Positions 1 through 3,100 of a DNA stretch of 6,328 nt are shown here, piece by piece. Where the stretch lies: the IMG/VR virus record IMGVR_UViG_2541047844_000011; one strand, given 5' to 3'. Every line of letters begins with the position of its first letter. The stretch's first letter is position 1. The translations under genes were made by a program, and so were the position numbers. Under the pieces are notes generated by a model. It saw only the letters and a program-made list of their open reading frames with translations. It was not told the origin of the DNA and ran no database searches. Source of the stretch: a virus. Its lineage: Duplodnaviria > Heunggongvirae > Uroviricota > Caudoviricetes.

Positions 1-88
1 AAACCGGGCCATGATTATTACTTTTATATCCGCAGTGTGAACACCGTTGGCAAATCGGCATTCGTGGAGGCTGTCGGTCAGCCGAGTG

Positions 89-124
89 ATGATGGGTGGT
101 CAGGTTGTGGTGATTGGTCGCTGA
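89..124 (+). other. Remnant of the 3' end of tail assembly protein I (last ~9-11 codons plus stop)
   Basis: Frame 2 reads [11 protein letters not shown] followed by TGA at 122..124. Lambda gpI ends ...GGQVVVIGR as I recall it, and the 60-nt spacing from this stop to the J ATG at 185 matches the lambda I-J spacing as I remember it. Frame 2 has a TGA at 38..40 and no I-like sequence upstream, so only the extreme 3' end of I is present. Confidence 0.45.
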
Positions 125-142
125 TGCAAAATGTTTTATGTG

Positions 143-162
143 AAACCGCCTCCGGGCGGTTT
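143..162 (+). promoter_or_regulatory. Perfect 8-bp inverted repeat (stem-loop) in the I-J intergenic spacer, followed by a U-rich stretch
   Basis: aaaccgcc (143..150), loop tccg, ggcggttt (155..162), then tgtcgttt. The strand-symmetric hairpin lies 23 nt upstream of the J ATG. It could be an RNA stability or processing element or a weak terminator; function not determinable from sequence. Confidence 0.3.
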
Positions 163-184
163 TGTCGTTTATGGAGCGTGAGGA

Positions 185-3100
185 ATGGGTAAAGGCAGCA
201 GTAAGGGGCATACTCCGCGCGAAGCGAAGGACAACCTGAAGTCCACGCAGCTGCTGAGTGTGATCGATGCCATCAGCGAAGGGCCGGTTGAAGGTCCGGT
301 GGATGGATTAAAAAGCGTGCTGCTGAACAGTACGCCGGTGCTGGACAGTGAGGGGAATACCAATATCTTCGGTGTCACGGTGGTGTTCCGGGCAGGTGAG
401 CAGGAGCAGACTCCGCCGGAGGGGTTTGAATCCTCCGGCTCCGAGACGGTGCTGGGTACGGAAGTGAAATATGACATGCCGATCACCCGCACCATCACGT
501 CGGCAAACATCGACCGTCTGCGCTTTACTTTCGGCGTGCAGGCACTGGTGGAAACTACCTCAAAGGGGGACAGGAATCCGTCGGAAGTCCGTCTGCTGGT
601 TCAGATACAGCGTAATGGTGGCTGGGTGACGGAAAAAGACATCACCATTAAAGGCAAAACCACCTCGCAGTATCTGGCCTCGGTGGTGGTGGATAACCTG
701 CCGCCGCGCCCGTTTAATATCCGGATGCGCAGGATGACGCCGGACAGCACCACAGACCAGCTGCAGAACAAAACGCTCTGGTCGTCATACACCGAAATCA
801 TCGATGTGAAACAGGGCTACCCGAACACGGCACTGGTCGGCGTGCAGGTGGACTCGGAACAGTTCGGCAGTCAGCAGGTGAGCCGTAATTATCATCTTCG
901 CGGGCGCATTCTGCAGGTGCCGTCGAACTATAACCCGCAGACGCGGCAATACAGCGGTATCTGGGACGGAACGTTAAAACCGGCATACAGCAACAACATG
1001 GCCTGGTGTCTGTGGGATATGCTGACCCATCCGCGCTACGGCATGGGAAAACGTCTTGGTGCGGCGGATGTGGATAAATGGGCGCTGTATGTCATCGGCC
1101 AGTACTGCGACCAGTCGGTGCCGGACGGCTTTGGCGGCACGGAGCCGCGCATTACCTGTAATGCGTACCTGACCACACAGCGCAAGGCGTGGGATGTGCT
1201 CAGTGATTTCTGCTCGGCGATGCGCTGTATGCCGGTATGGAACGGGCAGACGCTGACGTTCGTGCAGGACCGACCATCAGATAAGGTGTGGACCTATAAC
1301 CGCAGTAATGTGGTGATGCCGGATGATGGCGCGCCGTTCCGCTACAGCTTCAGCGCCCTGAAGGACCGCCATAATGCCGTTGAGGTGAACTGGATTGACC
1401 CGGATAACGGCTGGGAGACGGCGACAGAGCTCGTGGAGGATACGCAGGCCATTGCCCGTTACGGTCGTAATGTCACGAAGATGGATGCCTTTGGCTGTAC
1501 CAGTCGGGGGCAGGCACACCGCGCCGGGCTGTGGCTGATTAAAACGGAACTGCTGGAAACGCAGACCGTGGATTTCAGCGTCGGCGCAGAAGGGCTTCGC
1601 CATGTACCGGGCGATGTTATTGAAATCTGTGATGATGACTATGCCGGTATCAGCACCGGTGGTCGTGTGCTGGCGGTGAACAGCCAGACCCGGACGCTGA
1701 CGCTCGACCGTGAAATCACGCTGCCATCCTCCGGTACCACGCTGATAAGCCTGGTTGACGGAAGTGGCAATCCGGTCAGCGTGGAGGTTCAGTCCGTCAC
1801 CGACGGCGTGAAGGTAAAAGTGAGCCGTGTTCCTGACGGTGTTGCTGAATACAGCGTATGGGGGCTGAAGCTGCCGACGCTGCGCCAGCGCCTGTTCCGC
1901 TGTGTGAGTATCCGGGAGAACGATGACGGTACGTATGCCATCACCGCCGTGCAGCATGTACCGGAAAAAGAAGCCATCGTGGATAACGGGGCGCACTTTG
2001 ACGGCGACCAGAGCGGCACGGTGAATGGTGTCACGCCGCCAGCGGTGCAGCACCTGACCGCCGAAGTCACCACAGACAGCGGGGAATATCAGGTGCTGGC
2101 GCGATGGGACACGCCGAAGGTGGTGAAGGGCGTGAGCTTCCTGCTTCGCCTTACCGTGGCAGCGGACGACGGCAGTGAGCGGCTGGTCAGCATGGCCCGG
2201 ACGACGGAAACCACATACCGCTTCAGGCAACTGGCGCTGGGGAACTACAGGCTGACAGTCCGGGCGGTAAATGCGTGGGGGCAGCAGGGCGATCCGGCAT
2301 CGGTATCGTTCCGGATTGCCGCACCGGCAGCGCCGTCGCAGATTGAGCTGACACCGGGGTATTTTCAGATAACCGCCACGCCCCATCTTGCCGTTTATGA
2401 TCCGACGGTACAGTTTGAGTTCTGGTTCTCGGAAAAGCGGATTGCGGATATCAGGCAGGTTGAAACCACAGCCCGCTATCTTGGCACGGCGCTGTACTGG
2501 ATAGCTGCCAGTATCAATATCAAACCGGGCCATGATTATTATTTTTACATCCGCAGTGTGAACACCGTTGGCAAATCGGCATTTGTGGAGGCTGTTGGCC
2601 AGCCGAGTGATGATGCATCCGGCTATCTGGATTTTTTCAAAGGCGAGATAGGGAAAAGCCATCTGGCTCAGGAGCTGTGGACGCAGATTGATAACGGTCA
2701 GCTTGCGCCTGACCTGGCTGAAATCAGGACGTCCATTACGGATGTCAGCAATGAAATCACGCAGACCGTCAATAAGAAACTGGAAGACCAGAGTGCGGCA
2801 ATTCAGCAGATACAGAAGGTTCAGGTTGATACAAATAATAACCTGAACAGCATGTGGGCTGTGAAGCTGCAGCAGATGCAGGACGGACGCCTTTATATCG
2901 CGGGTATTGGTGCCGGTATTGAGAACACCCCTGACGGCATGCAGAGTCAGGTGCTGCTGGCGGCGGACAGGATTGCGATGATTAATCCTGCGAATGGCAA
3001 TACAAAGCCGATGTTTGTTGGGCAGGGCGATCAGATATTCATGAACGAAGTGTTCCTGAAATATCTGACGGCTCCCACCATTACCAGCGGTGGCAATCCC

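Follow-up and report, generated by a model that had tools for sequence, protein, structure and literature searches.

The window analyzed here, by which we mean the whole stretch of 6,328 nucleotides of tailed-phage DNA, carries an intact copy of the tail gene J, which encodes the tip attachment protein, and directly upstream of it lies a diverged piece of a second J that runs into the last codons of gene I. The question raised by this locus is whether such an arrangement is a heritable scar of recombination between two lambdoid prophages, or whether it was created when the DNA was prepared for sequencing or assembled. The features on which the question turns are listed below, where A and B denote two lambdoid prophages of E. 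coli, and J' denotes the upstream piece of J.

1..94, plus strand: J' fragment of 31 codons, from the second Ig-like domain of J, prophage B allele
94..95, no strand: J(B) nucleotide 2431 bluntly joined to the 3'-terminal 30 nt of gene I
95..124, plus strand: 3' remnant of gene I, GGQVVVIGR and a TGA stop, out of frame with J'
125..184, plus strand: I-J spacer with a conserved hairpin at 131-179, 60 nt long as in complete genomes
1..192, plus strand: open J' frame through the I remnant and the spacer, 31 J residues and a 32-aa out-of-frame tail
178..214, no strand: three-SNP patch with the prophage B alleles 178 G, 182 G, and 214 T, flanked by prophage A sequence
185..3667, plus strand: intact J of 1160 aa, prophage A allele, with all six J Pfam domains
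2522..2615, plus strand: J segment paralogous to 1..94, J codons 780-810 of 1160

Most of the window is the right end of prophage A, which comprises the I end, J, stf, orf92, and orf97 and extends to just before the host genes sitDCBA. Positions 91-6328 were 99.9% identical to this lambdoid prophage, which adjoins sitABCD / sitDCBA in E. coli, and matches covering at least 80% of the window length were found in 932 of the 5,426 complete E. coli genomes. Prophage A was also found among induced phages in a megablast search of INPHARED, for example as Lambda_2E9, and the J protein encoded at 185..3667 was the same product in 1018 blocks of public assemblies. In every copy of prophage A that was inspected, gene I was intact ahead of J.

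The first 94 nucleotides do not follow this pattern. They aligned without gaps to positions 2522..2615 of the intact J at 89 of 94 positions, and the five differences (at 21, 27, 63, 75, and 78) were all C/T differences at third codon positions and all synonymous, with the two 31-residue peptides identical throughout (31/31). An initial annotation of the window had reported the same match with the same restriction to synonymous third-position changes, and both were obtained again when re-computed. The similarity is far above chance, as the exact allele of the J' segment was matched by megablast at E = 5e-41, and the J' peptide was assigned to the Pfam family Ig_J_second (PF24489) at profile positions 66-96 of 105 with E = 3.9e-11. 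The J' reading frame has no start codon in the window and leaves J after residue 31. Measured against a complete J ORF, with an N-terminal start and the receptor-binding domain PF12421, J' is a fragment within the window. The expression of a truncated J, as suggested in the initial annotation, would depend on sequence upstream of position 1.

The exact allele was located in a second prophage. The 94-mer was 100% identical to positions 6001-6094 of the prophage B locus (L003) of NZ_CP023142.1, within an intact gpJ of 1165 aa. Prophage B is lambdoid and adjoins appY, and over the tail region it is ~96.5% identical to prophage A. The two prophages were found together in at least ten complete E. 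coli genomes, including NZ_CP023142.1, where prophage A lies at 2.90 Mb and prophage B at 3.67 Mb. On the evidence of this sequence identity, positions 1-94 are a piece of the J gene of prophage B, which resides in the same host lineage as prophage A. This agrees with the earlier proposal that J' represents a different but functional J allele and not a self-duplication. A self-duplication within prophage A would consist of a tandem copy of 95..2615 of which the upstream copy had diverged, and the head-to-tail topology described below would fit it. It would, however, have to explain five differences in 94 nt against none from position 215 onward in the comparison with prophage A of NZ_CP023142.1, and it is refuted by the exact match of the 94-mer to the J of prophage B, which leaves it with practically no chance of being correct.

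Downstream of the J' fragment, translation of positions 95..124 in the frame beginning at position 2 gave GGQVVVIGR, with which the annotated tail assembly protein I also ends. The stretch was identical to the ends of the annotated tail assembly protein genes in both prophages, and because A and B do not differ over the window-equivalent positions 62-126, the I remnant is assignable to neither. It consists of the last nine codons and the stop only and is thus a remnant, not a gene; the Lambda_tail_I domain (PF06805), which occupies residues 2-64 of the 190-aa protein, was absent from 95..124. The identification of this segment as the 3' end of gene I followed by the normal 60-nt spacer, which had originally been made from the sequence alone, agrees with the annotated I C-terminus of the matching prophage. 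Within the spacer, the first sites that distinguish the two prophages (127, 132, and 134) carry prophage A alleles, and the hairpin at 131-179 (-21.1 kcal/mol, z = -2.85) is accompanied by no terminator-like T run. From position 95 on, the window therefore resembles the I-J region of lambda and other lambdoid phages, with a standard end of I, a 60-nt spacer, and a six-domain J. It differs from the lambda region in that 94 nt from the middle of another prophage's J occupy the place of the gene I body.

The J' frame continues through both of these segments. It remains open to the TAA at 190..192, as had been described, although the out-of-frame tail that follows the 31 J residues is 32 aa long and not 33 aa. 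Such a tail arises simply when the I end is read in the +1 frame, and public protein sets contain it in frameshifted products of gene I. The reverse situation, an intact gene I whose product naturally holds the J-like peptide, had been named in the initial annotation as the finding that would speak against a recombinant origin. It was excluded, as 108 of 108 control I ends in the fetched loci were preceded by an ordinary gene I. Moreover, the J-like and I frames are one base apart, and the I frame upstream of 95 stops at 38-40. A natural gene I variant is hence an explanation to which we attach almost no probability.

The joint between the two segments was blunt. In register at 94|95, J goes on with CAT and the gene I end is preceded by GAT, and no in-register microhomology was found. 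The short microhomology that had been suggested for the breakpoint is therefore not there in register. A crossover in the shared GATG would have left one G fewer than is seen, and would have given an in-frame J'-I fusion. On prophage B, the I side of the joint corresponds to L003 3575 and the J side to L003 6094, a distance of 2,520 bp. The order is head-to-tail, as both sides lie on one strand and position 95 follows the J-equivalent position 2615, with 2,520-2,521 bp between these points. NZ_CP023142.1 also carries a third prophage, C, and for all k values examined between 15 and 127, none of A, B, and C contained the k-mers that span the joint. Because any graph assembler would need these novel k-mers to build the joint, at least one physical molecule must have carried it.

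The position of the two prophages in the chromosome limits how such a molecule could have arisen. In the six genomes with both coordinates listed, A and B have the same orientation, and B lies upstream of A at a distance of 645-770 kb. If J(B) were joined to I(A) in the chromosome, this interval would be lost; reciprocal chromosomal exchange is therefore excluded, since such a loss is regarded as non-viable.

Besides the joint, the window contains a short patch with alleles of the second prophage. Positions 178, 182, and 214 were the sole differences from prophage A of NZ_CP023142.1 across 95..6328, and they carry prophage B alleles; positions 127-164 and all positions from 251 onward are of the prophage A type. 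The patch haplotype was found in no complete E. coli genome, where the best matches reached 99.1% over 95-420 and 99.4% over 95-260. The 130-mer at 126-255 was likewise not found in IMG/VR, in which partial combinations of the alleles do occur. When prophages A, B, and C were combined in a de Bruijn graph, a path through the A-B-A mosaic existed only at k <= 37. Other sources of the patch were considered and rejected. A natural haplotype instead of a mosaic was suggested by 46 IMG/VR proviruses that combine C/T/T at 127-134 with G/G at 178/182, but these have at least 16 mismatches over 95-700. Prophage C as the donor is contradicted by its A at 164 and C at 214, and a majority consensus of the paralogues, as represented by three fetched copies, fails at 214.

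Within the collections searched, the joint is private to the window sequence. A 35-mer and a 24-mer across the joint had no exact match in GTDB representatives, JGI metagenomes, and IMG/VR, and a megablast search with positions 1-400 gave no joint-spanning match in the 5,426 complete E. coli genomes, INPHARED, and PLSDB. Two E. coli records with at least 80% coverage in megablast were rejected upon inspection, as one (H1) represents an unrelated internal deletion of J and the other (H2) a chance extension into a normal gene I. At the protein level, the chimeric peptide was found neither among 5.8 billion protein clusters nor in the gene-position index, and the 63-aa edge product and a 51-aa ORF starting with GTG were not on record. 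The hits of a homology search with the chimeric product were limited to partial J proteins and products of gene I with a frameshift.

Among the 932 related prophage copies, the J'-I arrangement occurred in none, and this count also bears on the reading that the repeat belongs to a system of programmed diversification, either as the template and variable repeat pair of a diversity-generating retroelement (DGR) or as a recombinase-driven J cassette. Such a system would be expected to show a diverged direct repeat of part of a tail-tip gene near that gene, as the ~94-nt repeat does. The five differences are, however, synonymous C/T transitions and not adenine-specific, and the repeat falls in a conserved Ig-like domain in the middle of the gene, not in the receptor-binding 3' end of J. 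In addition, no reverse transcriptase or recombinase domain was found among the window ORFs (J, stf, and two small proteins), and there were no inverted repeats. Programmed diversification is thus extremely improbable.

The place of the J' fragment at the very start of the window also has to be taken into account. At its 3' end, the window stops precisely with the termination codon of the final prophage gene, beside host DNA, with sitD 91 nt further, and position 1 is a gene boundary on neither strand. From this pattern, position 1 is probably a contig edge, as a provirus slice would otherwise have retained the upstream tail genes. An end on a gene stop combined with a start off any boundary is what a provirus slice that meets a contig end would give, and the J' piece would then be shorter than one read and lie at the contig terminus. 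If position 1 is indeed the contig edge, the known part of J' amounts to 94 nt, or to as many as 96 nt in case the slice was cut at the first complete codon. The length of 94 nt equals k-1 for k = 95, which is a hint only, as position 1 coincides with no A/B unitig boundary.

With these observations, we lean slightly toward the joint being a product of library construction or assembly, involving no heritable rearrangement, over a real scar, and consider its chances to be about even. During construction of a mate-pair or jumping library, a sheared fragment of ~2.5 kb may have been circularized, and a read crossing the unmarked ligation point could then have extended a contig that would otherwise have halted in the gene I stretch common to the prophages. 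The B-type patch at 178-214 would then likewise stem from a mixture of paralogous reads where the contig ends in a collapsed repeat. Illumina mate-pair libraries are known to yield chimeric reads over unmarked circularization junctions (PMC3253782), and the joint resembles these reads in that a ~2.5-kb stretch has its end attached bluntly, without a linker, to its own start in the same orientation. In contrast to those chimeras, the J piece here is from B and the downstream sequence is mostly from A, such that assembly across paralogues would also be needed. An origin in library construction or assembly is consistent with the private nature of the joint, which had no independent occurrence in any collection searched, with a J' piece shorter than a read at an apparent contig end, and with a blunt, in-register join as from ligation. 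It would also account for end and start points that lie 2,520 bp apart on the donor, a spacing that a random chimera would almost never give, and it avoids the chromosomal B-to-A join, which would cost 645-770 kb in six of the six genomes with both coordinates listed. Two further observations are suggestive only: the I part opens at the first 33-mer (95..127) that distinguishes A from B, and the mosaic is threadable at k <= 37 alone, which hints at a small-k assembly. Against such an origin stands the physical molecule that must have existed, as single-copy chimeric reads are mostly discarded by assemblers. If the final k was 39 or larger, the A-B-A patch would also have been in the reads, which would point to real recombination between A and B beside the joint. 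A J' of 94-96 nt could equally be left by a real junction into a long repeat at a graph k near 95-96, and the prophage A type of 127-164 argues that the 5' end is not simply one prophage B read.

The alternative is a real and heritable scar of recombination between the two prophages, with prophage B as the donor, which we consider possible, at somewhat below an even chance. Such a scar could have formed when both prophages co-replicated after induction and a hybrid phage lysogenized at the A site, or when prophage B served as the template in the aberrant repair of a break near the gene I end of prophage A. In the latter case, ~2.4 kb would have been copied into J(B) and then end-joined back to the I end. 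The product would be a partial tandem duplication in the order I, J(B)' residues 1-810, I remnant, and intact J(A), in which the patch at 178-214 would reflect heteroduplex repair in the same event, and J', which would be devoid of its receptor-binding end, would be a pseudogene. A heritable scar is favored by the co-residence of the donor allele and the recipient prophage in the same genomes, by the B-specific nature of both the 94-mer and the 178-214 patch, neither of which points to prophage C, and by the requirement for real reads behind the mosaic if k was at least 39. The head-to-tail gain of 2.5 kb corresponds to the only type of A x B hybrid that keeps all essential tail genes, and by our own estimate it stays within the packaging size of lambda. 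Furthermore, a genuine junction leading into a second J(B) copy would be expected to produce a contig that halts ~k-1 bases into a long repeat, and O157 Sakai provides a documented case of recombinant phages derived from lambdoid prophages residing together (PMC2669165). On the other side, no second occurrence was found in the collections searched, and a real scar would require an illegitimate blunt join in an organism that lacks classical NHEJ, as well as a separate short conversion patch. J' is also seen for 94 nt only, with nothing J-like evidenced upstream, and reciprocal exchange in the chromosome is closed to it by the 645-770 kb loss. The most specific form of this explanation, in which the joint is real and heritable and is preceded by the full N-terminal J(B) of ~810 residues, such that a truncated J and the intact J(A) stand in tandem, is unlikely.

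A heritable scar would have precedents in part. In the Sakai strain of O157, chimeric phages of the prophages Sp5 and Sp15 were formed via stretches of more than 90% homology, with equivalent segments exchanged (PMC2669165). As in that system, two lambdoid prophages of one cell would supply the two sides of the joint; unlike the Sakai recombinants, the joint here is non-homologous and blunt and connects non-equivalent positions, from the middle of J to the end of I. A different precedent may be found in lambda itself. Tandem duplications of phage lambda arise by illegitimate recombination, are head-to-tail and a few kb in size, and have a novel joint without homology. The window shares with them the head-to-tail order, the size of a few kb, and a joint without homology, and differs from them in that its copies are of different alleles, with B upstream and A downstream, and in that 94 nt of the upstream copy are visible.

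Under either explanation, the locus presents no new kind of element, as both are of ordinary and known kinds. If the joint was created during library construction or assembly, nothing would be expressed or functional here, and the locus would serve as a caution that contig ends in the tail regions of multi-copy prophages can bear foreign pieces and mixed alleles, which should be neither taken for biology nor given a pseudogene annotation. A real joint would add one more private case to the well-documented shuffling among lambdoid prophages of one host, leaving a dead J fragment behind, and would be at most a snapshot of J bodies and receptor-binding ends being reassorted. Should the truncated J(B) and J(A) indeed stand in tandem, the locus would represent a captured intermediate in the exchange of a host-range module. 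Recombination between the J bodies, which are ~96.5% identical, would resolve the tandem into a B/A mosaic J, and until that had happened, the truncated J product could compete in the assembly of the tail tip.

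Across positions 95..6328 of the window, the only mismatches to prophage A, the lambdoid prophage whose right-hand end it represents, were 178 G, 182 G, and 214 T, and all three are alleles of the co-resident prophage B. The resulting A-B-A haplotype was absent from every complete E. coli genome. When the three fetched prophages were combined in one graph, it could be threaded only at k <= 37. Prophage B also encodes a homologue, approximately 94.5% identical, of the last ORF in the window, and the similarity between A and B extends approximately 74 nt beyond the window end.

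Features of the window, followed by the insertion sequences near the side tail fibre gene (stf) in loci fetched from other genomes:
Window 131-179, spacer between the tail assembly gene I and the tip attachment protein gene J: long hairpin with the core AAACCGCC/GGCGGTTT (fold of -21.1 kcal/mol, z = -2.85)
Window 1277-2662, minus strand: 461-aa ORF antisense to J
Window 3720-5747: stf, a single intact 675-aa ORF with a GTG start and a PF08400 N-terminal domain
Window 6035-6328: 97-aa hydrophobic ORF, its stop codon at the exact window end
Locus L013: IS5, inside stf
Locus L008: IS4, between J and stf
Locus L005: IS3-type element, downstream of stf

The sequence of the spacer hairpin was kept across the lambdoid loci fetched. 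No intrinsic terminator was identified at 131-179, where the hairpin is without a T run and the terminator scan called none. The ORF antisense to J is most likely a by-product of J codon bias. The 97-aa ORF had no Pfam match, and in complete genomes it is the final prophage gene ahead of the host sitDCBA.

The stf gene is annotated differently in NZ_CP023142.1, where the identical DNA is split into a truncated pseudogene and a distinct "phage head spike fiber domain" protein. Insertion sequences interrupt the prophage around stf in other genomes. No lom was found between J and stf (3668-3719) in this prophage, in contrast to prophage C of NZ_CP023142.1, where the order is J, lom, and stf.

Another E. 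coli prophage, in NZ_CP148405.1 (L002 3091-4963), includes a 60-aa ORF at the start of J followed by a J pseudogene without its N-terminus, suggesting an internal deletion in J. The junction of this lesion differs from the joint in the window, while its occurrence shows that finished genomes do contain broken J genes. Additionally, several public "proteins" recovered by homology search (P0001-P0006) begin as gene I products, switch to the +1 frame used by the tail behind the J fragment at 1-94, and end in 29 residues of that frame. They derive from I genes in other assemblies that are frameshifted or were mis-sequenced. In many lambdoid prophages, the +1 frame at the end of gene I is therefore open up to the start of J.
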